NCBI GenBank assembly: GCA_964625275.1
Contig: CAZVBH010000001.1
Location: 1 to 56,441, forward strand
DNA length: 56,441 nt
DNA from: an uncultured Lachnoclostridium sp.
GTDB lineage: Bacteria > Bacillota > Clostridia > Lachnospirales > Lachnospiraceae
Reading direction: 5' to 3'
The notes under the pieces are model-generated. The model made no database searches and was not told the DNA's origin. It saw nothing but the letters and a program-made list of their open reading frames with translations. The first letter of the stretch is position 1. Each line of letters begins with the position of its first letter. Positions 438 to 9,153 of the stretch are shown piece after piece. The position numbers were made by a program, and so were the translations under genes.

Positions 438-622
438 AGCGTTAGCGAGCTGGAGGAAGCGTAGCTTGTTCATATTTTCTACAGATAAAATACAGATATG
501 CTTCATACTAACTACAATTAGGACAGATATAATTTTATTTGTAATATAGCCAATCTATATTACGGGGTTATTTTCTACTATATGAAAAACTCGTTTGTTT
601 TGTTATACAGTGTATCAGAGGA

Positions 623-1117
623 GTGGTTGGTTTAATGAAAAGAGCACCGTTCAAGTGGATATTATACTATTTACAGCTTACCTTTGTAGGTGTATTTGTA
701 TTGGTATTATGTGTGTACAACATGGAAGTTAAACAAAAAGATTTTTTACAGAGAGGGATGTATACGGAAAATGTTCAGGGGATACAGTTATCTAGTAACT
801 ATTTGTCTTCTGTTTGTGGAGAAGTAGTTGATTTCAATATTCCTCAGATTAACACAGGGGATTTTATGATATATAAGAGATTATCAGAAGAATACAATGA
901 AATTGTAAGGGGAATCTATGGAACAAAAGATGTTTTCAATTACTCGTCTTATATAAAAAAGGGAAGATTTTTTGAGCAGAGTGATTACACAGAGAAAAGT
1001 GCGGTTGCGGTTATAGGGTATTCTATGCTTGACAGAATTTATACAGAAAATGGTATACAATATTTTGGTTATGATAATCAATTATATGAGGTGATTTCAA
1101 ATGGAAAAGAGAGATAA
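623..1117 (+). CDS. Membrane-anchored protein resembling the N-terminal TM plus extracytoplasmic domain of an FtsX/MacB-type (DUF1430-like) permease. Probably the 5' half of a disrupted gene.
   Basis: N-terminal TM helix (WILYYLQLTFVGVFVLVLCVY), then a soluble domain ending ...KKGRFFEQSDYTEKSAVAVIGYSML...YEVIS, typical of MacB-type periplasmic domains. It stops at 1115-1117 while the next ORF starts at 1101 in another frame. Confidence 0.4.
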   Translation: MVGLMKRAPFKWILYYLQLTFVGVFVLVLCVYNMEVKQKDFLQRGMYTENVQGIQLSSNYLSSVCGEVVDFNIPQINTGDFMIYKRLSEEYNEIVRGIYGTKDVFNYSSYIKKGRFFEQSDYTEKSAVAVIGYSMLDRIYTENGIQYFGYDNQLYEVISNGKER

Positions 1118-1607
1118 ATTACAAGGGGGAACCGAAATATTTCTGACTTTTTTAGCAACATGTGTTTCATACTATATGTATATGGATAAGTATCTAAAGA
1201 ACAATGTAAACATTATGAATTCTATCAATGAATTATCTTCCAAGGTATCCATCAGCACAGAAAAAATCTCTTATTTTTTTATTGGAATATTGACAATGTG
1301 TTTGCTGATTTTTCTTGTGATTGGATTTGTGATATATCGGATTATATTTAAGAAAGTATGTAAATGTGATGTGGAGGATTTTAAGTTATTTTTAGGTGTC
1401 ATGACATCTTATGCATTAAGCTTCTTAATTGGATATTATTTGATAGGATTAATTCCTTTAGTTATCATTACAGTATTATGTAATCTCGTTGAAATGGGGG
1501 CTGTCATTTTTTTTTGCTATGAGAATATTAAGGGAAAGGTTGTATTAGCAAGCTTAATTCGTGGAGTGTTAATCATCTTGAATGTTTTTTTTCAGTTGAC
1601 AGCATAG
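1101..1607 (+). CDS. Polytopic membrane protein, plausibly the 3' (TM-bundle) half of the same disrupted FtsX-like gene.
   Basis: It overlaps the previous ORF by 17 nt in a different frame and carries several hydrophobic helices (e.g. YFFIGILTMCLLIFLVIGFVIY). AT-rich codon usage. Confidence 0.35.
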   Translation: MEKRDKLQGGTEIFLTFLATCVSYYMYMDKYLKNNVNIMNSINELSSKVSISTEKISYFFIGILTMCLLIFLVIGFVIYRIIFKKVCKCDVEDFKLFLGVMTSYALSFLIGYYLIGLIPLVIITVLCNLVEMGAVIFFCYENIKGKVVLASLIRGVLIILNVFFQLTA

Positions 1608-1622
1608 GAATAAAAAGTAATT

Positions 1623-1661
1623 CGGATAACCTTATAACCATAAATTTTTAAGGTACAATCC
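1623..1661 (+). terminator. Short hairpin using the same AACCTTA/TAAGGT arms as the 116-bp element.
   Basis: CGGAT-AACCTTA ... TAAGGT-aca-ATCCG, immediately downstream of the stop at 1607. Confidence 0.4.
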
Positions 1662-1665
1662 GTTT

Positions 1666-1781
1666 TTAACCTTATCTGACTTTTCAGCATCAGTAGGAGG
1701 CTGGACGCCTACTGATGGGCCACGAAGTGGCTTTAAGGTTATGAGCAAGTAGCGAAGCGGACCCGGAATATCCGCTTTGAT
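1666..1781 (+). repeat. 116-bp structured intergenic repeat element, copy 1.
   Basis: Identical to 33269-33384 except for 2 substitutions. It contains the perfect hairpin CATCAGTAGG-N10-CCTACTGATG, GCCAC-gaa-GTGGC, and AAGCGG-N11-CCGCTT followed by T. Confidence 0.9.
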
Positions 1782-1831
1782 TGAGGTGGCTTCGACACCT
1801 CAATTCATATTATAAATTGGAGATATGAGAT

Positions 1832-2494
1832 ATGGACATACAAATTTTAATAGTGGAAGATGATAAAACTCAAAATGATGTACTTGCAAATTTTTTGAAA
1901 TATGAAAATTACAAAGTATATTCAGCATACACGATTCTGGAAGCAAGGGAGTATATGAAACAGGATATTCATCTGGTTATTTTGGATGTAATGCTGCCAG
2001 ATGGAAATGGACTTGCTTTTTTAAAAGAAATACGAAAAACAACGTCTGTGCCGGTAATTGTTCTTACTGCATTGGATGACGAGTATACGCAGATGCAGAG
2101 TTTTGATCTAAAAGCGGATGAGTATGTAGATAAACCAGTATCTCCAGTTGTCATGACAAAGAGAGTGAAGGCATTGGTGGAACGGATCTATGGAAATAGC
2201 AGTATTGTGAAGATTAACGGTTTTTTATTTGATTTTGAGCGTTTTGTTATAACATCTGAAAATGGTGAAGAAATAAAGCTGACGACGAAGGAGATTCAGA
2301 TCGTAAAACTTTTATATGATTATCATGGCAAGGTAGTGACTCGCGATATGATTCTGGATTTTGTATGGGGAAATGAATATGTCGGAGAGGATAGACTAAT
2401 AGATACCCATATCAAAAATATCAGGAAAAAATTAGGTAATGAAATAATTGTAACAGTAAAAGGTGTAGGATATCGGTTACAAGGGTTTATATAA
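1832..2494 (+). CDS. OmpR/PhoB-family response regulator.
   Basis: Receiver domain (ILIVEDD, LVILDVMLPDGNG, KP) plus a winged-helix C-terminus (...VKGVGYRL). RBS GGAGA lies upstream of the ATG. Confidence 0.9.
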   Translation: MDIQILIVEDDKTQNDVLANFLKYENYKVYSAYTILEAREYMKQDIHLVILDVMLPDGNGLAFLKEIRKTTSVPVIVLTALDDEYTQMQSFDLKADEYVDKPVSPVVMTKRVKALVERIYGNSSIVKINGFLFDFERFVITSENGEEIKLTTKEIQIVKLLYDYHGKVVTRDMILDFVWGNEYVGEDRLIDTHIKNIRKKLGNEIIVTVKGVGYRLQGFI

Positions 2495-2502
2495 TCAGAA
2501 GG

Positions 2503-3924
2503 GTGGTAGATTTTATACATATGAGAAAACTTAAAATTTTTTGGAAAGTATTTTACATGACGATGACGATTTTGAGTTTGATGGTTGTAATTGCTTATTT
2601 TTTATTATATCTACTTCTTCCGGATTTTTATAAAAGTTATAAGAAAGAGCAGTATCAGAATTTAACAAATGATTTTATAAAACAGTTTGCATTAGTAACT
2701 GATTTTGGGGAGGAAACGGAACTGTTATCGGTATATGCCCAACAGAATGGGATAGATTTGGAATTGCGTAATGACGTGGATGAAGTGATATTTGATTTTT
2801 ATCAGGGAAATTATATTGTTACAAATTGGGATTCCACAGAGCTTTCGGGTGATGAAGCCGGCGCAGCTGTGGAAATAAATGGAAATGGAGTTGCGGAGTA
2901 TGAAAAAGTTAGCGTTGAATGTAGTTATGTATTAAAAGATGGTTCTGACAGGACATTGACAGTTATGGTTCCACTTCAGCCATTGAATGAGGCAAAGGAA
3001 GTAATGATTCGCATTTATCCAGTTGCATGTGTGATTTGCATTGCATTTGCTTTTGTATTTGCTTTTGTGTTTTCGAAGATATATATAAAGCCCATTAAAC
3101 AGATTAGTATATTGGCAAGAAAAATGTCGTATTTGGAAGAAAATGTTGAAATACCGGTTAATTCTTCTGATGAGATAGGGCAACTAAGCCAGGATATCAA
3201 TCAATTATATCAAGAATTAAAAGGAACGATTGATACATTAAATACAGAGCTTAGGAAATTTTCTGATGCGGAGAATCGGAAGATTGGTTTCTTTCGAACA
3301 TTTTCCCATGAACTCAAAACGCCTTTGGCAGCTGCAAATGCTTTGTTGGAGGGTATGATTCATGAAATTCCACCATATAATACGAATCAACAAAAGTATT
3401 TAACAGAGTGCCGTCAATTTTTGGAGAAAGCAGTGGAATTGGTAAAAGAGTCGCTGTCTTTTTCAATGGTGGAGTACAGCGAGCAGGTTACGGTATGCAA
3501 TGTGAAAGAATTGGTTTATGATGTGACGTCTGATTATATGATGATTATACGTTCAAAACAGATTGAATATGTTGAGAAAATTCCCGTGGATTTTTTTGTG
3601 CAGACCAGGACAGGTCTTTTAAAAAAGGCAGTATCTAATATCGTATCAAATGCAGTCAATTATACACCGGGGAAAGGGCGGATTTATGTGTATTGCAAGG
3701 GGGACACTTTAATAATAGAGAACACCTGTATTCCGCTGCCTGCGGCTGAATTGGATAAAATTTATGAGCCATTTTATTCGGGGAATAATGATAATAAGAT
3801 GTCAAATGGATTGGGTTTGTCAATCGTAAAACAGCTGTTTGGTATGTTACATATTGATTACCGATTTGAACCATTGGAAAATGGAAAAGGAATGAAGTTT
3901 ATGGCATCTTTGGATAAAGTTTGA
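2503..3924 (+). CDS. Sensor histidine kinase with a ~130-aa extracytoplasmic loop.
   Basis: Two TM helices flank the loop. H-box FSHELKTPL, N-box SNAVNYTP, G-box NGLGLSIV. The start is uncertain (GTG 2503 or ATG 2521). Confidence 0.85.
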   Translation: MVDFIHMRKLKIFWKVFYMTMTILSLMVVIAYFLLYLLLPDFYKSYKKEQYQNLTNDFIKQFALVTDFGEETELLSVYAQQNGIDLELRNDVDEVIFDFYQGNYIVTNWDSTELSGDEAGAAVEINGNGVAEYEKVSVECSYVLKDGSDRTLTVMVPLQPLNEAKEVMIRIYPVACVICIAFAFVFAFVFSKIYIKPIKQISILARKMSYLEENVEIPVNSSDEIGQLSQDINQLYQELKGTIDTLNTELRKFSDAENRKIGFFRTFSHELKTPLAAANALLEGMIHEIPPYNTNQQKYLTECRQFLEKAVELVKESLSFSMVEYSEQVTVCNVKELVYDVTSDYMMIIRSKQIEYVEKIPVDFFVQTRTGLLKKAVSNIVSNAVNYTPGKGRIYVYCKGDTLIIENTCIPLPAAELDKIYEPFYSGNNDNKMSNGLGLSIVKQLFGMLHIDYRFEPLENGKGMKFMASLDKV

Positions 3925-4024
3925 GGAGCGATAAGATGATATTCCGGTTGGATTTTCTTATGGTTGTCGCGTCTAGCCTTCATCCAGCTTTTATCAAGGT
4001 CACTTTTCTTGGGCGGTTTCAAAC

Positions 4025-4246
4025 TCATTCAAATCCACCTCCCAGCATATTTGACAGATATGGATTAGCATAATTGCGTGTAATGCAGCTCTCAAACCAT
4101 GTCATGACTTCGCTGATAATAGGAATATCATAGTTTATGGCAAGAAATGAGAGGTAAGCTATTTTGGGATTAACATTTGTGTTAATCCTCTTCTTATTTA
4201 AGGAAGCTCCAAGAGTGATGCTGTCAGAGTTACGATTATAAATCAT
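4025..4246 (-). CDS. Unassigned 73-aa ORF, possibly a gene remnant.
   Basis: Open frame only. No RBS or motif recognised. A second short frame (MSLKPPKKSDLDKSWMKARR...) follows out of frame, which suggests decay. Confidence 0.2.
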   Translation of the reverse strand: MIYNRNSDSITLGASLNKKRINTNVNPKIAYLSFLAINYDIPIISEVMTWFESCITRNYANPYLSNMLGGGFE

Positions 4247-4348
4247 GGCAGACTTCTTGCCTGTAACAGCCTTGCGGAAAAGTGATTCAGAATGTAATTT
4301 TTGATTAAATATTCACGCACTTTAGTGCGAAAATTTAAGAAAAATACG

Positions 4349-4377
4349 TTGAAAATTACACGAATATTCATTATACT
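4349..4377 (+). promoter_or_regulatory. Sigma-A-type promoter for the ATPase gene.
   Basis: TTGAAA (4349-4354), 17-nt spacer, TATACT (4372-4377). The palindrome CGCACTttAGTGCG lies just upstream. Confidence 0.55.
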
Positions 4378-4406
4378 ATTAATATCATCTTTAGGGAGGA
4401 TTAAAT

Positions 4407-5702
4407 ATGTATAGGAAAATCAATGTTTTTTTAGAAGCCTGGAAAGAAAATAAATATCGTAAGCCATTAATATTACAAGGAGCCAGGCAGGTTGGAAAGA
4501 CATATTCAATTTTGGAGTTTGGACGTTCTCATTATGAGAATGTCGCATATTTTAATTTCGAGACGAATCCAAACCTGAACGCAACCTTTGAGGAAGATAT
4601 TAGTCCGGCTTATCTGATTCCGGTTTTGTCTCATATTTCCGGTCAGACCATAGTAAGAGAAAAAACACTAATAGTTTTTGATGAAGTGCAGCTTTGTGAA
4701 AGAGCACTGACTTCACTCAAATATTTTTGTGAAGAAGCATCTGAGTATCATATTATTGTAGCAGGCAGCTTGCTTGGTGTTGCTGTTAACAGAAAAAGAT
4801 TTTCGTTTCCTGTGGGCAAGGTAGATATAAAAACACTTTATCCATTAGATATGGAAGAATTTATGCTTGCCATGGGCGAAGCTGATTTGGTAAATCAGAT
4901 AAAAATATGCTTTCAGACTAATGCACCATTACCGACAGCATTACACAATGCGGCTATGAACCTTTATCGTCAGTATTTGGTGGTTGGGGGGATGCCGGAA
5001 TGTGTAGCACAGTTTTCTGAAACAGGAGATTATATACTTGTTCGTCATACTCAGGATACAATCCTTACAAGCTACTTAAATGACATGAGCAAATATAATA
5101 ATTTAAACGAAATCAAAAAAACCAGACTTACTTATGATAATATTACAGTGCAGCTTTCAAAAAAAAATACACGTTTTCAGTACAAGCTTATTAAAAAAGG
5201 TGGGAGAGCTTCAGAATTTGAAAATGCAATTGAATGGCTTTGTCTGTCTGGAATTGTATCGCAGATATACAAATTAGAACAGATTAAAAAGCCTCTCGAA
5301 AATTATCGGGATATCGATTCCTTTAAAATATATGTTTCAGATTTAGGCTTACTTGCAGCAAAAAAGAATTTAACAGCAGGCGATATCCTTTATATGGGAG
5401 ACGAATTAAATGATTTTAAGGGTGGAATGGTTGAAAATTATGTAAATGTGCAGCTTAGCATAAATGGCCATCGAACTTATTATTGGTCATCAGACAGAGG
5501 AGCAGAAATAGATTTTGTGATTCAGCTTGATGATAAACTGATTCCAATAGAGGTCAAATCAGCAGACAATACTAAAGCTAAAAGCTTAAAGATTTATATG
5601 GAGACATATAAGCCGGAATACGCAATAAAGCTCTCTACAAAGAACTTTGGCTTTGAAAATGGGAAAAAAAGTGTCCCACTTTATGCTGCATTTTGTATCT
5701 GA
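4407..5702 (+). CDS. AAA-type ATPase with a C-terminal PD-(D/E)xK-like domain (COG1373 / AAA_14+DUF4143 architecture, recalled from memory).
   Basis: Walker A GARQVGKT and Walker B LIVFDEVQ. The C-terminus GAEIDFVI...LIPIEVKS fits a D...ExK nuclease-fold motif. RBS AGGGAGG. Confidence 0.8.
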   Translation: MYRKINVFLEAWKENKYRKPLILQGARQVGKTYSILEFGRSHYENVAYFNFETNPNLNATFEEDISPAYLIPVLSHISGQTIVREKTLIVFDEVQLCERALTSLKYFCEEASEYHIIVAGSLLGVAVNRKRFSFPVGKVDIKTLYPLDMEEFMLAMGEADLVNQIKICFQTNAPLPTALHNAAMNLYRQYLVVGGMPECVAQFSETGDYILVRHTQDTILTSYLNDMSKYNNLNEIKKTRLTYDNITVQLSKKNTRFQYKLIKKGGRASEFENAIEWLCLSGIVSQIYKLEQIKKPLENYRDIDSFKIYVSDLGLLAAKKNLTAGDILYMGDELNDFKGGMVENYVNVQLSINGHRTYYWSSDRGAEIDFVIQLDDKLIPIEVKSADNTKAKSLKIYMETYKPEYAIKLSTKNFGFENGKKSVPLYAAFCI

Positions 5703-5730
5703 TTACAAAACTAATATAGCTATAAAACAA

Positions 5731-5782
5731 GTTGGGAAATTTAGAGATGGGATTCCTTTTCGCACCAGTTTTATGTTATACT
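5731..5782 (+). promoter_or_regulatory. Promoter-like block with an extended -10 (TGtTATACT), copy 1. It is an orphan that points antisense into the Fic/Doc remnant.
   Basis: About 52 bp closely similar to 6286-6337 (gttggGaaatttagagatgggattcctttTcgcacc..tgttatact). Confidence 0.4.
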
Positions 5783-5884
5783 AACTACAATGGGTGTCTT
5801 TTTTGTTAAGAGATATAAAAATTCATGGATTCGTGCTACAATAAATTGTAGTGTCACACCCACATTGTTGCCACAGCGAATTGC

Positions 5885-6153
5885 TTAGGATTGTATAGTT
5901 TTCCAGCAGTGTGCTTTTATAAATGCTGCAATCACAGCGATATCTTCGCCCTCATAGTATTTTATAAGCAATTGTTTGAATTCCGGCACTTCTTTTTCTG
6001 GAATCACCAAGAAACCACCGCCATGCGCAATAAGATAATGGTTTGCAAAAATGACAGAAGCCCGTTTATTGCCGTCCAAGAATATCTGAGTCTTGTATGC
6101 AGGTCGGCACGACTTCTAAGCAATTCTTGTATCTCACTATATTGTACAGCCAT
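5885..6153 (-). pseudogene. Fic/Doc-family gene remnant with an internal deletion and a frameshift.
   Basis: ATG at 6153 with the same RBS and the same first ~21 codons as the gene at 113. At ~6089 the sequence jumps out of frame into (L)DGNKRASVIFANHYLIAHGGGFLVIP, the distal part of the HxFx(D/E)GN(G/K)R Fic/Doc motif. The N-terminal frame terminates shortly afterwards. Confidence 0.7.
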
Positions 6154-6265
6154 TGTCTCTCCTCCTTTGGGGAACAATTATTGCTGATATCATATCAAAA
6201 TGTTCCCCAATAGTCAATGAAGATTGGGGAACATTTTTTGAATATATATTACTAAATGCTCCCCA
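6089..6265. repeat. Copy B of the ~180-bp Fic/Doc 5'-region repeat.
   Basis: See copy A (49-227). Confidence 0.9.
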
Positions 6266-6266
6266 A
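6167..6266 (-). promoter_or_regulatory. Duplicate of the Fic/Doc promoter/operator array. Here it lies in the divergent region upstream of the 6402 cassette.
   Basis: TTGGGGAACA at 6167-6176 forward, 6201-6210 reverse, 6224-6233 forward (all perfect), and 6257-6266 reverse (1 mismatch). Confidence 0.55.
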
Positions 6267-6285
6267 CCTAATATATATATAACAT

Positions 6286-6337
6286 GTTGGAAAATTTTAA
6301 GATGGGATTTCCTTTCGCACCGACTTTGTGTTATACT
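6286..6337 (+). promoter_or_regulatory. Promoter-like block copy 2, upstream of the two-gene cassette.
   Basis: Same block as 5731-5782, ending in the extended -10 TGtTATACT (6329-6337), about 65 nt before ATG 6402. Confidence 0.45.
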
Positions 6338-6401
6338 GGTGTAAATAAAAAAATATAGCTGTCATTTGACACTACCTGAGTGTTTTGAAAGAGGAAAAAT
6401 T

Positions 6402-6851
6402 ATGTTAAAGATAGTATTTGGAGAAATTGAAAATTCGATATATCATCCACCAACTTATTTTGATAATCGTTATGAGGATGATTGGATAACAGACCCTTTA
6501 ACTGTCAAGATGATAAAGGATATAGACAAATCAGATGTGATAGGACCATATCTGATTCAGAGTCCGGTATTAGGACCAATTTCTGTAAAAGAAATTTCAG
6601 GAGGAGTTAAAACTTTAATTCTTATGGCTTTTGATGAGTCCGGAAAAATATTTAATGCTTCAGTCTGTGGAGATAATTGTAGCAAGTGGATTAATGAAAT
6701 AGGTAGAACAAAAGATTTAACAATTAATCTTCATCATATTATGGATTTTAGTAATGCCAGAGAGTTTACTGCACTTATGTTAAATACTGGCAAAGTAGTT
6801 CACAGTTATGAAGAATACCTTTCAGAAGTATTTAGGATTGAGGAGCGATAA
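6402..6851 (+). CDS. Small (149 aa) protein. From memory it resembles Pfam DUF4869. It carries an ABC/SMC signature-like motif.
   Basis: ATG 6402 lies 7 nt after GAGG; the ORF-track TTG at 6366 is unlikely. Sequence MLKIVFGEIENSIYHPPTYFDN...KEISGGVKTLILMAFDESGKIF. The stop at 6849-6851 is 2 nt before the next ATG. Confidence 0.6.
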   Translation: MLKIVFGEIENSIYHPPTYFDNRYEDDWITDPLTVKMIKDIDKSDVIGPYLIQSPVLGPISVKEISGGVKTLILMAFDESGKIFNASVCGDNCSKWINEIGRTKDLTINLHHIMDFSNAREFTALMLNTGKVVHSYEEYLSEVFRIEER

Positions 6852-6853
6852 AA

Positions 6854-7822
6854 ATGAGAGGTCAATACCATATTGTTGTACAGAACAACAGGATACGTTA
6901 TGAGTTAAATATACGTCGCAATATCACTATCATTCAAGGTGATAGTGCAACTGGAAAGACAACTTTGGTGAATTTAATTGAACAAGCTGCTACTTTAGGA
7001 GAAGGTTCGGGGATAGATGTAATCTGTAAATGTCCATGCAGAACGTTGAGAGGAAATGATTGGCAGTTGATTTTAGCTGGTACTCATGAGCATATAATCT
7101 TTATTGACGAGGAAAATATTTTTATAAAGTCAATAGAATTTGCAAGAATGGTAAAAGAATCTGATAATTATTTCGTAATAGTAACTCGAGAGAGTCTGCC
7201 TAATTTACCATATTCGGTTGAAGAAATATATGGAATACATACTTCAGGCAAGTACCATGATTTAAAAAGAACTTATAATGAAACTTATAAGATTTATAGC
7301 ACAGAACTAACTGACAATAAAATCAAGCCCGAAATGGTAATTGTAGAAGATTCCAATGCAGGCTATGAATTTTTTTATTCGGTATTTAAGGAACATGGAA
7401 TAAACTGTTTAACCGCAAAAGGAAAGTCTAATTTGATTAAAATGACTTCACAGCAAAGTCAAGAAATTTTAATTATTGCCGACGGAGCAGCCATAGGTTC
7501 TGAAATGAATGAACTTTCAAAAATGATGGGTTGGAAAAAGTCTGTTAAGTGTTATCTTCCGGAATCTTTTGAATGGCTAATACTAAAATCTGGTCAGATT
7601 GATGGTAAAGAACTTCGGGATATATTATTACATCCAGAAGATTATATTAAAAGTGAAGAATATGTCAGTTGGGAAAGATATTTTGTTGCACTAATAGTTA
7701 GTTGCACCAAAGGAACCTATTTACAGTATTCTAAAAATAAGCTTAACGAGGTTTATTTAAAGGGCAAAATAAAGCAAGCAATTTTAGATGTAATTGAAGG
7801 TGTTGATTGGAATAATATTTGA
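6854..7822 (+). CDS. Mini P-loop ATPase (N-terminal ~115 aa) fused to a Toprim/DUF4435-like C-terminal domain.
   Basis: RBS GAGGAG. Walker A GDSATGKTT (aa 29-37), Walker B-like HIIFIDEE (aa 80-87), FVIVTRES. The C-terminal half has MVIVEDSNAGYEFF (E165) and ILIIADGAAIG (D210), a strand-E ... strand-D pattern like Toprim. The domain call is not HMM-verified. Confidence 0.55.
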   Translation: MRGQYHIVVQNNRIRYELNIRRNITIIQGDSATGKTTLVNLIEQAATLGEGSGIDVICKCPCRTLRGNDWQLILAGTHEHIIFIDEENIFIKSIEFARMVKESDNYFVIVTRESLPNLPYSVEEIYGIHTSGKYHDLKRTYNETYKIYSTELTDNKIKPEMVIVEDSNAGYEFFYSVFKEHGINCLTAKGKSNLIKMTSQQSQEILIIADGAAIGSEMNELSKMMGWKKSVKCYLPESFEWLILKSGQIDGKELRDILLHPEDYIKSEEYVSWERYFVALIVSCTKGTYLQYSKNKLNEVYLKGKIKQAILDVIEGVDWNNI

Positions 7823-7899
7823 TAATAACTTAAAATAGTAGAATTAAAAACAGAATTTTCGTTAGGCTCTGTTATATACTACAACCGAGGAGAAGCAAA

Positions 7900-9153
7900 A
7901 TGAGATTTTTACATTTATCAGACCTGCATATTGGCAAGTCACTTTATGGGGTATCATTATTGGGAAATGGAGACCAGGGAAAATGGGTCGAGGACTTTAT
8001 TACCCTGGCAGAGAATTTAAAGCCTGATGCAATAGTAATTGCAGGGGATATTTATGACCGAAGTGCTCCGTCAGGAGAGGCGGTCGAGTTACTGGATAAG
8101 CTGGTGACGGAGATTTCAAACCTTGACATCCCTCTTCTTATGGTCGCAGGCAACCATGATTCGGCGCAGAGGCTTAGCTTTGGCGGAAGCCTTTTGGCAA
8201 AGCAAAATTTACATATTTCAGGTACACTTTCTAAAGAATTGCCACATGTAACTCTGGAAGATGAGTATGGTCCGGTCACCTTTTGGCTTATGCCATACGT
8301 ATTTCCACATCTGGTGGCAGCTGTGCTTGAGGATGACAGCATTCGTGACTATGAAACGGCAGTCAGAAGATTGCTTGAAAGTCAAAATATTGATTTTACA
8401 AAGAGAAATGTGCTGGTAGCTCATCAGAATGTAACCCAAGGAGGCAAGGAAGCTGAAAGAGGTGGCTCAGAATCCATGGTGGGTGGAATTGACGGAATTG
8501 ACTATACTGCCTTTGACGGCTTTGATTATGTTGCATTAGGTCACATTCATTCAGCTTATTCAGTAGGACGTGATACCGTACGTTATGCAGGCTCGCCATT
8601 GTGCTATCACTTTGATGAGACCAGACAGAAGAAAAAAGGGCCTGTTTTAGTAGAGCTTGGCAAAAAAGGAACGGAGGTATCAATTGCAACTCAAACCATA
8701 GAGCCACTGCATCCTTTAAGAGAAATAAAGGGCGACTATAACGATATTATTAACGCTGAGACAAATAATAAGACAGAGGGTGAATATATTCGCATCGTTT
8801 TGAAAGACCGTCCTGTTGATCTAGACATTTCAACAAACCTTCATGAAATGTTTGAAAATCGACATAGCATCTTAATGGCGCTGACCAGTGAATATTATCG
8901 ATTTTCTTCGGTGGAATCATTAGAGACAACGAAAGATGTAGCAGCTAAATCCTTAGAGGAGCTTTTTTCAGATTTTTATACCCAGCTTAATGGCGGTATT
9001 CAGCCAGATGAGAGTAAGCAGGCCGTTTTAAAATTAGCAGAAGATATGGTGCGACGAGGAGAATTTAATGACCAAAATATTCCAAGCGAGAAAGAAGTTG
9101 ATGAATTGCTTGATTTTGTATTAAAACAGGAGGATGAGAATGAGACCGATTAA
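7900..9153 (+). CDS. sbcD: Exonuclease SbcCD, nuclease subunit SbcD.
   Basis: Calcineurin-type phosphoesterase motifs MRFLHLSDLHIG, GDIYD, AGNHD, GHIH. Translationally coupled to sbcC. Confidence 0.85.
   Translation: MRFLHLSDLHIGKSLYGVSLLGNGDQGKWVEDFITLAENLKPDAIVIAGDIYDRSAPSGEAVELLDKLVTEISNLDIPLLMVAGNHDSAQRLSFGGSLLAKQNLHISGTLSKELPHVTLEDEYGPVTFWLMPYVFPHLVAAVLEDDSIRDYETAVRRLLESQNIDFTKRNVLVAHQNVTQGGKEAERGGSESMVGGIDGIDYTAFDGFDYVALGHIHSAYSVGRDTVRYAGSPLCYHFDETRQKKKGPVLVELGKKGTEVSIATQTIEPLHPLREIKGDYNDIINAETNNKTEGEYIRIVLKDRPVDLDISTNLHEMFENRHSILMALTSEYYRFSSVESLETTKDVAAKSLEELFSDFYTQLNGGIQPDESKQAVLKLAEDMVRRGEFNDQNIPSEKEVDELLDFVLKQEDENETD

Follow-up and report, generated by a model that had tools for sequence, protein, structure and literature searches.

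Organization of the locus

Within the 56,441-nucleotide stretch of DNA analyzed here (the window), which comes from an uncultured Lachnoclostridium sp. (contig CAZVBH010000001.1), two closely spaced genes, denoted A and B, are located on the forward strand, as are the promoter-like block, the ribosome-binding sites and the coding segments described below. Gene A (6402..6851) starts with the ATG at 6402, ends with the TAA stop codon at 6849-6851, as read directly from the sequence, and encodes a 149-aa DUF4869 protein with a predicted ABC/SMC-head-like fold that contains neither a P-loop nor a catalytic Walker B motif. Gene B starts with the ATG at 6854, 2 nt after the stop codon of A, ends at 7822 and encodes a 322-aa protein. 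The positions of the two ORFs, the 2-nt interval and the presence of a separate ribosome-binding site (RBS) for each gene are exactly as described in the initial annotation. By direct reading, the RBS of A, AGAGGA (6391..6396), is 5 nt ahead of the ATG, and that of B, GAGGAG (6840..6845), lies within the 3' end of A. An alternative, longer version of gene A, with a TTG start at 6366, is unsupported because the N-terminal M1-L2 of the A protein is invariant among the homologs. The spacing between A and B is between -4 and +16 nt in 59 of the 65 homologous pairs. Both A and B are real genes, not chance ORFs, and are coupled translationally.

Upstream of A, there is a promoter-like block (6271..6337) that ends in TGTTATACT, with an extended -10 element (TATACT, 6332-6337), and has a copy with 81% identity at 5716-5782 (repeat family D3). 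This block might function as a promoter; the consensus promoter scan did not call it because no match to the -35 hexamer is present. A conserved upstream promoter/operator or the end of a mobile element was considered and rejected because the 110 nt upstream of A are unrelated among loci. The location of the pair in an AT-rich patch holds in part: the GC content is 0.32-0.35 over positions 6000-8000 compared with 0.37-0.45 downstream, but the whole region from 500 to 8000 is similarly AT-rich. A search of the whole window for Rfam families detected no RNAs.

Domains and motifs of the A and B proteins

Protein A, for which the initial annotation suggested DUF4869, is a full-length member of this family (Pfam PF16163), with E=8.2e-53, a score of 178.1 bits compared with the gathering cut-off of 28.9 and an alignment that spans positions 1-126 of the 128 in the profile. 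The family of A comprises at least 8000 clusters, and no paper mentioning DUF4869/PF16163 was found in a literature search. In a Foldseek search of the PDB with the AF2 model of A (pLDDT 93.4), the best 50 matches are all ABC ATPase heads, including those of SMC, Rad50, cohesin, MsbA, PtuA and AriA, and the top one is the SMC head 1e69_A (E=3.5e-3, probability 0.98, TM-score normalized to the query of 0.43). The likeness of A to ABC heads, as judged from the model, is at the level of the fold only. A profile search of A against PDB sequences produced no matches, and no sequence homology is detectable between A and B or between A and OLD.

There is no Walker A motif (GxxxxGK[ST]) in A, and the strand equivalent to Walker B reads I-F-N-A-S, with N85/A86 standing where D/E would be expected. 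The earlier observation that A carries a motif resembling the ABC signature together with the following helix is borne out: the sequence ISGG is found at S66-G68 (codons 6597..6605), in the context [IL]-S66-G67-G68-V-K-T, and in the AF2 model this motif would cap the N-terminus of helix 67-77, the position of the ABC signature motif, with strand 83-85 coming next. Each of the residues S66, G67, G68, V69, K70 and T71 is at least 98% conserved in 76 homologs. Conservation and the model further delineate the segment of residues 84-112 (6651..6737), where FNAS is a degenerate Walker B strand, CGDNC is found at the D-loop position and LTINLHH at the H-loop position; the predicted secondary structure consists of strand 83-85, helix 91-103 and strand 106-110, and F84, N85, A86, S87, C89, G90, N92, C93, W96, L110 and H112 are invariant among the 76 sequences. 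When read along the sequence, these motifs are colinear with the signature, Walker B, D-loop and H-loop of the C-terminus of SbcC encoded in the same window. Judging by the model, A is another domain of ABC-head origin, in which the P-loop and catalytic Walker B have been lost but a signature-like SGG persists. For DUF4869, previously without an assigned fold, partner or function, this analysis contributes the ABC-head fold and B as the obligate partner. An inter-subunit Cys4 metal site, formed by C89/C93 of A and C58/C62 of B, was also considered and dropped because the B cysteines are not conserved across the family.

Protein B (AF2 model, pLDDT 95, pTM 0.91) appears to consist of a minimal ABC-type P-loop ATPase domain (residues 1-150; 6854..7303), delineated by conservation, the AF2 model and hhalign, and a Toprim-like alpha/beta domain with a helical C-terminal extension (residues 155-322; 7316..7822), delineated by the model and conservation. 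The motifs that the initial annotation quoted for B are all in place, namely, GDSATGKTT with K35 (Walker A, G29-T36, 6938..6961, reading G29-x4-G34-K35-T36), HIIFIDEE with D85/E86 (Walker B, I81-E86, 7094..7111, reading I81-x-F-x-D85-E86), FVIVTRES with R112 and, in the C-terminal half, MVIVED with E165/D166 and IIADGAA with D210. In the alignment of 93 diverse homologs of B, the invariant residues are R22, G34, K35, E86, R112, D166, D210, E237, E240, E274 and Y292. The distance from Walker A to Walker B, previously given as about 45 residues, is indeed short but amounts to 50 residues after K35. In the model, three beta-strands precede Walker A, and residues 53-80, the approximately 28 aa between helix alpha1 and Walker B, form two short strands and one 6-residue helix. 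Walker B follows Walker A so soon that there is no room in B for a signature motif or a helical lobe, in agreement with the original description of an SMC/RecF/OLD-type ATPase head lacking space for the signature; B has no conserved S-G-G and no helical lobe, and T111-R112-E113 occupies the H-loop position.

The nature of this ATPase domain bears on an unlikely alternative under which A is a sensor or adaptor involved in cue binding or oligomerization, with the SGG outside ATP binding, and B works without a signature, similarly to AAA+ or STAND ATPases. Members of the B family match AAA_23, AAA_29, ABC_tran, AAA_15 and SMC_N but also AAA_22 and nSTAND3, with scores against AAA_22, nSTAND3 and AAA_14 that are about equal to those against the ABC-type models, and the 50 residues from Walker A to Walker B are a typical distance for non-ABC ASCE ATPases. 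However, the B model shows two features of ABC heads, the three-strand N-terminal sheet ahead of the P-loop and a terminal beta-hairpin, the best-matching folds for B are the ABC-type OLD, GajA and PtuA, and the most conserved residues of A are the equivalents of the signature, Walker B and D-loop rather than a surface patch.

Sequence searches assign B to no established family. Comparison of B with Pfam, NCBIfam, PADLOC and PHROGs, and with PDB using phmmer/hmmsearch, yielded only weak, generic matches to the N-terminal P-loop; there was no Pfam match above the threshold and no curated family. PADLOC has no model that covers the A-B pair, with no match for A and no match for B to PARIS (AriA/AriB). 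In RefSeq, the members of the B family are annotated as "hypothetical protein", and some NCBI records misname them "translation initiation factor 2". Structural comparison of the whole chain with the PDB, using Foldseek, points to the OLD family: the top match is GajA (8wy5_A, E=7.5e-4), followed by TsOLD (6p74, E=2.4e-3), the retron-Eco8 OLD effector (9lpa_B and 9p4j_A, E=1.4e-2) and GajA again (8sm3_A, E=1.5e-2), with PtuA of Septu further down (E=0.24). The matches between B and OLD proteins are weak, with TM-scores normalized to the query of at most 0.24, rmsd of 16-20 Å and E-values about 1e-3. The best viral match of B is annotated as 'ATP-dependent endonuclease'. Comparison of B with Toprim, DUF4435 and OLD by HMMER and hhalign gave nothing significant, and an hhalign comparison of the B family with P2 Old was likewise non-significant; against a profile of 13 aligned OLD proteins, hhalign produced colinear but weak matches, in which the P-loop of B falls on the OLD P-loop (E=1.5e-4, probability 52%) and G190K191...D210 of B, from the end of beta2 to the Asp after beta3, falls on G430K431...D453 of OLD (E=0.003, probability 10%). 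The likening of B to the Toprim proteins of the OLD/GajA type stands at the level of weak whole-chain structural neighbors but not at the level of significant sequence similarity.

The Toprim fold is characterized by a four-stranded parallel sheet, a Glu after beta1, a Gly after beta2, a DxD motif after beta3 and an additional acidic 'glutamate helix' with a T-x-E motif (PMC6755086). By these criteria, the C-terminal domain of B, which in the AF2 model contains four parallel strands (161-164, 184-187, 205-208 and 231-234), would have E165 as the Glu, G190 as the Gly, D210 as the first Asp of DxD and S238-F-E240 as the counterpart of T-x-E (PMC6755086). The DxD motif is incomplete, with Ala in place of the second Asp (D210-G-A212). 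The acidic cluster includes E165/D166, D210, E237/E240 and E274, with G190-K191 after beta2. D166, D210 and E240 are invariant, E165 and G190 are at least 90% conserved, and S238 is at least 90% conserved among the 93 homologs and invariant in a separate conservation analysis. If the model is correct, this cluster (E165/D166, D210, S238/E240 and E274) would bind divalent metal, and B would be a fusion of a minimal ATPase with a probable metal-dependent nuclease.

A very unlikely alternative is that B has no nuclease moiety and that its C-terminal domain has instead a regulatory or ligand-binding role, resembling receivers or flavodoxins, so that A-B would be an NTPase switch or sensor with a different output. 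Local Foldseek matches of this domain to receiver domains carry the top probabilities (0.97-0.99, up to 0.99, with TM-scores normalized to the target up to 0.56), the combination of ED after beta1, D after beta3 and S after beta4 resembles the DD/D/T of receivers, and the incompleteness of DxD is in line with this reading. A search of sequence databases with the C-terminal domain alone gave no significant match, DUF4435 being touched by 1 of the 47 C-terminal domains (E=0.029), and a profile search of the PDB returned only a weak receiver match (E=0.16). Against a receiver-like domain, there are four strands instead of five and the conserved Lys after the fifth strand is absent; the domain contains the extra invariant acids E237, E240 and E274 as well as G190-K191 after beta2 as in the OLD Toprim domains; the best whole-chain matches are OLD-family proteins, in which the domains come in the same order; and a histidine kinase is not a conserved neighbor.

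Distribution and genomic context

The two genes were anticipated to be syntenic elsewhere, and this is strictly the case: A adjoins B in all 77 loci in which the flank is present (76 in the A-B order and one in the B-A order), and in the look-ups centered on A, B is always next door. Grouping of the B homologs at 90% identity yields 5975 clusters, and at 50% identity, there are 3104 representatives. Gut Firmicutes carry the pair very commonly, and it is abundant in Lachnospiraceae from human and animal gut; its range covers Lachnospiraceae, Oscillospiraceae, Negativicutes and Actinomycetota at similar identity. The contexts of the pair vary over the three phyla in which it occurs. A and B co-evolve, their pairwise distances being correlated with r=0.79, compared with r=0.75 for the two domains of B itself. 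Two metagenome-assembled genomes each contain two divergent copies of A-B, and in one lineage, a 145-nt deletion excises the nuclease core of B, with A intact. A conjugative megaplasmid and some viral contigs also carry the pair, which is rare among both phages (3 of the 2.9 million contigs in IMG/VR, along with 5 fecal contigs that lack annotation) and plasmids (3 records).

The defense-islet context that was proposed for the pair is weakly supported. In the window, the neighboring gene encodes a 431-aa AAA_14+DUF4143 protein, corresponding to the AAA/PD-(D/E)xK ATPase recognized at the outset, that matches the PADLOC candidate PDC-S01 (E=1.8e-171); the Fic/Doc remnant reported nearby is a 64-aa fragment that contains the DGNKR motif but reaches only E=0.077 in the Pfam search. 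Among the immediate neighbors of the homologs (n=125), there are 4 HsdS, 3 integrases and a few matches to mad models, and the remainder are mostly housekeeping genes; other neighbors in homologous loci include ATPase-PD-(D/E)xK genes, toxin-antitoxin genes, a WYL regulator and IS66. The PDC-S01 neighbor and, near the homologs, a modest overrepresentation of genes for HsdS, integrase and ATPase-PD-(D/E)xK are consistent with a defense islet, but most of the neighborhood is not of this type. Clustering of all flanking ORFs from 80 loci rejected a third conserved component, the most frequent neighbor cluster after A and B, an ABC transporter ATPase, being present in 15 of the 80 loci.

Immediately downstream of the pair, sbcD and then sbcC follow in the window, as originally reported, but this adjacency recurs in none of the 80 other loci, so that a functional link of the pair to sbcDC was rejected. 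The arrangement in the window, with a gap of 77 nt between the pair and sbcD and no terminator-like site found in it, is nevertheless what could be expected if A-B were a housekeeping or accessory factor of DNA repair and recombination, either a RecF/RecR-like combination of ABC and Toprim or an SbcCD helper, and possibly transcribed together with sbcDC here, a role that we consider decidedly unlikely. The pairing of RecF, an ABC protein, with RecR, a Toprim protein, is a known repair pairing that counts in favor of such a role. The prevalence of housekeeping genes among the neighbors and the LysRS-A-B synteny that is common to several genera point in the same direction; the apparent enrichment of tRNA synthetases among the neighbors comes down to one LysRS gene common to a few related genera and accordingly does not represent independent events. 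Furthermore, the OLD family is not always defensive, as illustrated by the archaeal OLD-family protein Cran1, whose role is in the cell cycle and not in defense (PMC12796447). Conversely, in addition to the lack of sbcC or sbcD beside the pair in the 80 other loci and of a third conserved gene, a repair role is at odds with the patchy distribution that crosses phyla at similar identity, the divergent duplicate copies within single genomes and the deletion allele that circulates in one species.

The deletion that removes only the catalytic core of B and leaves A intact, along with the strict co-occurrence of the two genes, is also compatible with an addiction or toxin-antitoxin-like module that has no immune role, in which B would be a toxic ATP-dependent nuclease and A its inhibitor, leading to post-segregational killing. 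The small gene comes first in this compact, tightly coupled and self-contained operon, and in some loci, a PhdYeFM toxin-antitoxin pair and transposases adjoin A-B. We regard this possibility as unlikely: A is as conserved as B, and its invariant SGG/FNAS/CGDNC core is of the type found in a contributor to a catalytic site, unlike a fast-evolving antitoxin; in addition, A is predicted to have an ABC-head fold, and plasmids seldom carry the pair. Because abortive infection is the function of many toxin-antitoxin-like modules, this explanation overlaps with the one that we favor.

Proposed mechanism and comparison with known systems

The A-B pair appears to be an undescribed minimal variant of the OLD-type ATPase-Toprim systems; literature searches on OLD, Toprim and ABC found no paper describing this architecture. 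A-B is probably a conflict or defense module, as suggested by the spread of the pair over distant lineages at similar identity, the divergent duplicate copies, the deletion of the nuclease core and the HsdS, integrase, toxin-antitoxin and PDC-S01 neighbors; the rarity of the pair on phages and the predominance of housekeeping neighbors count against this role. The explanation that we favor, at a probability slightly short of even, is that A-B is a self-contained, two-subunit OLD-type ATPase-nuclease reduced to the minimum. Under this scenario, B carries the nucleotide-binding and hydrolytic half of the ABC ATPase, with K35 in the P-loop, D85/E86 in Walker B and R112 at the switch position, and the SGG of A would complete the ATP sandwich over the P-loop of B, in an AB or A2B2 complex. 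Binding and hydrolysis of ATP in this composite site might restrain or, alternatively, license the Toprim nuclease of B. The equilibrium would be shifted by a trigger, for instance, a cue from a phage or plasmid. Similarly to the OLD, PARIS and Gabija nucleases, B could then cut DNA or tRNA, halting either the invader or the cell that it has infected. More specifically, and only tentatively, the pair might be an obligate half-site ABC ATPase in which the P-loop-less A donates the sole signature to the Walker-only B, so that the nucleotide sandwich is fully divided between two minimal polypeptides and gates the Toprim nuclease of an as yet unnamed immune system with a wide distribution in gut Firmicutes.

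If this interpretation is valid, A-B would be the smallest known relative of the ATPase-Toprim effectors of OLD, Gabija and PARIS and a natural experiment on the minimum of an ABC ATPase that is needed. The Walker and signature motifs would reside on two mini-proteins, and therefore, the coupling between closure of the ATP site and licensing of the nuclease would be amenable to genetic and structural dissection in about 470 residues total. The Pfam family DUF4869 would gain a fold, a partner and a testable function, and so would the family of thousands of 320-aa proteins to which B belongs. To our knowledge, few defense systems of gut Lachnospiraceae have been experimentally tested.

Among the known systems, the heads of SMC, Rad50 and cohesin are the best structural matches of A; the short chains 3kta_B and 1xew_Y are, presumably, the C-terminal halves, carrying the signature, of head constructs made of two chains. 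In A and B, the lost motifs are complementary, which recalls the ABC heterodimers that combine one consensus site with one degenerate site. Unlike in such heterodimers, the degeneration in A-B is complete, with separate minimal polypeptides one of which has only Walker A/B and the other only the signature. Unlike SMC/Rad50 and the ABC transporters, A-B has neither a coiled coil nor a transmembrane partner.

The Class 1 OLD proteins (P2 Old and Thermus scotoductus OLD) resemble the model of B in combining an N-terminal ABC-type P-loop ATPase with a C-terminal domain, Toprim-type in OLD and Toprim-like in B, that contains a Glu after beta1, Gly-Lys after beta2, an Asp after beta3 and a downstream Ser/Thr-x-Glu. 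B is about half the size, with 322 aa compared with 586 aa in P2 Old and 538-724 aa in the other 12 aligned OLD proteins, and differs from Class 1 in having no signature motif, helical lobe or dimerization insert and in the reduction of DxD to D-G-A. The 13 aligned OLD proteins carry G264-x-G266 and H332 where B has no S-G-G and no H-loop His. The separate 149-aa ABC-remnant partner at the side of B is absent from the Class 1 OLD proteins. GajA of Gabija (Class 2 OLD) and the retron-Eco8 effector (Class 3) have the ATPase-Toprim architecture that is predicted for B; unlike in these systems, neither a UvrD-like GajB helicase nor a reverse transcriptase/ncRNA adjoins the A-B pair, and B is much smaller and its Toprim domain has no helical insert.

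PARIS, the proposed Class 4 OLD, similarly consists of two genes with ABC parts and a Toprim domain, namely, the ABC ATPase AriA and the DUF4435/Toprim nuclease AriB. AriA is among the structural matches of A (8v49_C and 8v47_H), and the spacing of the acidic segments 19-43, 80-87 and 109-115 in AriB (PMC12409363) resembles that of E165, D210 and E237-240 in B. The PARIS nuclease is encoded apart from its ATPase, which is complete (~55 kDa), whereas in A-B, the P-loop is fused to the predicted nuclease, and only a P-loop-less, signature-bearing remnant is encoded separately.

Organization of the gene pair

Gene A (149 amino acids) runs on the plus strand from the ATG at 6402 to the TAA at 6849-6851, behind the ribosome-binding site AGAGGA (6391-6396), and gene B (322 amino acids, plus strand) begins with the ATG at 6854, two bases past the stop of A, and ends at 7822, its ribosome-binding site GAGGAG (6840-6845) lying within the 3' end of A. 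This layout, claimed in the initial annotation, was confirmed in the sequence, as were the motifs placed in B (GDSATGK35TT, HIIFID85E86E, FVIVTR112ES, MVIVE165D166 and IIAD210GAA) and in A (IS66G67G68VKT). A TTG at 6366 is unsupported as an alternative start of A: the A homologues invariably begin with M1-L2. The cassette had also been described as an AT-rich patch; its GC content (0.32-0.35) is indeed lower than that downstream (0.37-0.45), but the entire region from 0.5 to 8 kb is similarly AT-rich.

The two genes are syntenic elsewhere, a check that had been proposed. A survey of one genome per GTDB species yielded at least 577 species with a relative of B; 80 loci were fetched, three of which begin at or inside B, and in all 77 informative loci A adjoins B, in the order A-B in 76 and B-A in one (L009, 8001-9504). 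One locus (L023, 2031-3883) has the arrangement A-A-B, the tandem A genes being 65% and 49% identical to the A of the window. Conversely, look-ups from A homologues found a B-type gene directly 3' every time, either intact (319 amino acids, no Pfam match) or as two fragments (L087, L088 and L090). In 59 of 65 pairs, B starts at a distance of -4 to +16 nt from the stop of A, and the pairwise divergence of A and B is correlated (r=0.79) as tightly as that of the two domains of B itself (r=0.75). Among the flanking genes of the 80 loci, no third conserved gene was found beside A-B, and the 110 nt 5' of A are unrelated between loci. Because none of the 80 other loci has sbcC or sbcD beside A-B, sbcDC was rejected as a part of the unit, which, given the strict A-B adjacency and the lack of a third gene, consists of two ORFs. 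The sbcDC context noted initially is real in the window, where sbcD starts 77 nt past B, but is local to it. No terminator-like site was found in this gap (7823-7899), so that read-through may be allowed and one transcript may cover A-B and sbcDC in the window genome. A rival reading of A-B, as a repair or recombination accessory, is favoured by this adjacency in the window and weakened by its absence from the other loci.

Fold and motifs of the two proteins

Protein A was assigned to Pfam DUF4869 as a full-length member (E=8.2e-53), in agreement with the initial annotation, and has no match in PADLOC, PHROGs, NCBIfam or PDB sequences. AlphaFold2 models it with confidence (pLDDT 93.4, pTM 0.87), and the best 50 PDB matches in a Foldseek search are, 50 of 50, ABC-ATPase nucleotide-binding domains, among them the SMC head 1e69_A (E=3.5e-3, prob 0.98), cohesin and condensin heads, Rad50, MsbA, PtuA and AriA; the E-values are marginal, the matches nonetheless unanimous. 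The P-loop is entirely absent, and the most conserved residues among 76 homologues are arranged as in the C-terminal half of an ABC head. S66-G67-G68-V-K-T, N-capping helix 67-77, takes the position of the signature motif, F84-N85-A86-S87 with strand 83-85 that of Walker B, where Asn and Ala replace Asp and Glu, C89-G90-D-N92-C93 that of the D-loop, and strand 106-110 followed by H112 that of the H-loop. The C-terminus of SbcC of the window shows the same motif order (LSGGE, MFIDEG, GSLD, VISH). On these grounds, A is modelled as a degenerate remnant of an ABC head, predicted to be catalytically dead, in which the signature motif survives.

Searches of Pfam, NCBIfam, PADLOC and PHROGs place B in no curated family and give only sub-threshold matches in the P-loop region, the best being the PADLOC LmuB model (3.3e-5); the RefSeq name is "hypothetical protein". 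The B homologues, almost all about 320 amino acids long, form 5975 clusters at 90% identity and 3104 representatives at 50% identity, and members of the family touch ABC-type models (AAA_23, AAA_29, ABC_tran, AAA_15, SMC_N) as well as the generic P-loop models AAA_22 and nSTAND3. Some homologues (P0031, P0066, P0075, P0077, P0110) are named 'translation initiation factor 2' in NCBI/nr, a name for which no support was found in sequence, Pfam matches or fold. Two longer proteins, P0273 (509 amino acids) and P0271 (489 amino acids), are B-like at residues 1-200 only, with unrelated sequence beyond, the last part of which resembles YaaC in P0273 (E=1.6e-6); such proteins could be chimeric or have swapped their effector.

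In an alignment of 93 diverse members, which share 33-48% identity with B of the window, R22, G34, K35, E86, R112, D166, D210, E237, E240, E274 and Y292 are invariant, and the AlphaFold2 model built from this alignment is very confident (pLDDT 95.0, pTM 0.91). In residues 1-150, the P-loop comes after three beta-strands and is followed by helix 35-52. From there to the Walker B strand (I81-E86) there are only about 28 residues, with two short strands and a helix of six residues; beyond Walker B lie helix 94-102, strand 106-110, which closes with T-R112-E, and, at the end, a beta-hairpin. The earlier claim of an ABC/OLD-like head with no room for a signature is thereby borne out, and the model presents this half as an ABC head cut down to its RecA-like core, lacking both the helical lobe and the signature motif.

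Residues 155-322 are modelled as an alpha/beta domain with four parallel strands (161-164, 184-187, 205-208 and 231-234), then helices. Measured against the Toprim definition of Schiltz et al. 2019 (PMC6755086), B has E165 after beta1, with the invariant D166, G190 after beta2, then K191, and D210 after beta3 as the first Asp of the DxD, the second being replaced by A212; G190-K191 coincides with G430-K431 of 13 aligned OLD proteins, and S238-F-E240 after beta4 resembles T506-x-E508 of the OLD 'glutamate helix'. The top whole-chain Foldseek matches of B are GajA 8wy5_A (E=7.5e-4) and Thermus OLD 6p74 (2.4e-3), then the retron-Eco8 effector (1.4e-2) and GajA 8sm3_A, and the best viral structural match is annotated 'ATP-dependent endonuclease' (2.1e-4). 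The TM-scores against OLD-family structures are low (<=0.24), as expected when the 322-residue B is set against chains of 450-750 residues with large inserts. Against a reference set of P2 Old and a further 12 OLD proteins, diverse and from plasmids, hhalign gave only two matches, in register and colinear, both below significance: the P-loops (E=1.5e-4, prob 52%), and G190K191...D210 on G430K431...D453xD455 (E=0.003, prob 10%). The OLD-like reading of B therefore stands on fold, topology and motif geometry, not on demonstrable sequence homology; the Toprim/OLD character claimed initially is partly borne out, E165 and D210 being present and the DxD incomplete (A212). Taken alone, the C-domain has local matches to receiver domains (Foldseek prob up to 0.99), and a rival reading is that it is receiver-like and not a nuclease. 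Among known folds, the models lie nearest to ABC heads (A) and to OLD-type ATPase-Toprim proteins (B), and we regard these structural assignments as likely.

The ABC motifs of the two proteins are complementary, Walker A and B occurring in B only and the signature in A only. The two proteins might assemble with the SGG of A closing over ATP at the P-loop of B, a composite site that we consider an evenly balanced proposition; alternatively, A could be a sensor or adaptor whose SGG lies outside ATP binding. The composite site would control the Toprim-like domain, a putative two-metal nuclease cutting DNA or tRNA.

Distribution, neighbours and repeats

The pair occurs in Lachnospiraceae, Oscillospiraceae (Ruminococcus), Negativicutes (Selenomonas, Dialister, Phascolarctobacterium) and Actinomycetota (Atopobiaceae, Collinsella), the identity to the window protein in these groups, 36% to 55%, overlapping that of many Lachnospiraceae loci. 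Such overlap across phyla argues for horizontal spread of A-B. Each of two MAGs carries two divergent copies (L032/L037; L051/L078), and a conjugative Ruminococcus albus megaplasmid has A-B next to IS66 elements. With only three IMG/VR contigs and five unannotated fecal 'Bacteriophage sp.' contigs, A-B is rare on phages. In one species, B has suffered a 145-nt deletion on many contigs (L087, 8451-9265; L088, L090 and 13 similar contigs) that starts at VED (beta1), stops just short of DGAA (beta3) and shifts the frame, A remaining intact; one contig of this species has an intact B (L089, 5217-6176). This natural deletion of the Toprim-like core indicates that B is dispensable and that the lost part is the predicted catalytic core, and it counts in favour of a rival reading of A-B as a pure addiction module.

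The immediate neighbours at the 80 loci are for the most part housekeeping genes. Raw counts among 125 neighbour genes include four HsdS, three integrases and some mad-type matches; AAA-ATPase_like+PDDEXK_9 genes adjoin the pair in about five loci, and annotated examples are a PhdYeFM toxin-antitoxin pair with transposases and, elsewhere, a WYL/WCX regulator. In the window, a 431-residue AAA_14/DUF4143 ATPase (4407-5702, plus strand), upstream of A-B and beside a Doc-type remnant, is a full-length match to PDC-S01, a candidate for phage defence in PADLOC (E=1.8e-171), and its relatives also flank A-B at L006 and L015. Support for the proposed defence-islet context is weak; the neighbourhoods, with a modest excess in raw counts, fit an accessory, conflict-type module. 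Directly 5' of A-B in several genera lies a class II Lys/Asp/Asn-type tRNA synthetase with a C-terminal tRNA_bind domain (L029, 5503-7440; L045, 1674-3755; L069, 5488-7419; a fragment in L046, 6930-7427), a single shared synteny that explains the seeming excess of tRNA genes among the neighbours; its parallel with tRNA-Lys cleavage by AriB, the PARIS Toprim nuclease, is probably coincidental.

Just 5' of the cassette, a direct repeat of about 180 nt (49-227 and 6089-6265, 99% identical, with TTGGGGAACA/TGTTCCCCAA palindromes) brackets about 6 kb with a two-component system (1832-3924), the AAA_14/DUF4143 ATPase and the Doc remnant, which suggests duplication or recombination-mediated insertion. 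A 67-nt block, 81% identical between its copies, both ending in a TG-n-TATACT extended -10, precedes gene A (6271-6337) and recurs just past the PDC-S01 gene, facing the antisense strand of the Doc remnant (5716-5782). A 77-nt repeat (217-293 and 365-441, 92% identical), with the hairpin AGTCCGAAAAAATGATGTTTTTTCGGACT in each copy, may be a small repeated intergenic element.

Comparison with known defence systems

By analogy with OLD, PARIS and Gabija, A-B might answer invading elements; such a defence or conflict role has, in our estimate, about an even chance, and the whole chain, from composite site to nuclease to defence, a slightly smaller one. The initial annotation knew of no named defence system with this architecture, and none emerged: PADLOC-DB v2 has no model covering A-B, DUF4869 (PF16163) is not mentioned in the literature searched, and the architecture is undescribed in the OLD/Toprim/ABC defence literature searched, a passing mention in the ABC survey of Krishnan et al. 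2020 being possible. A-B is not PARIS, because the split between ABC and nuclease parts is placed differently and PADLOC gives no AriA/AriB match for A or B, and it is not Gabija, because the helicase is missing; identity with a retron effector was also rejected. The pair would work like an OLD-family system, from which it differs in several membership features: B has neither a complete single-chain ABC head nor the dimerisation insert, its DxD is incomplete, and its sequence homology to OLD is below significance. A-B is classed here as a minimal OLD-like ATPase-Toprim module of two subunits that divide the ABC motifs between them.
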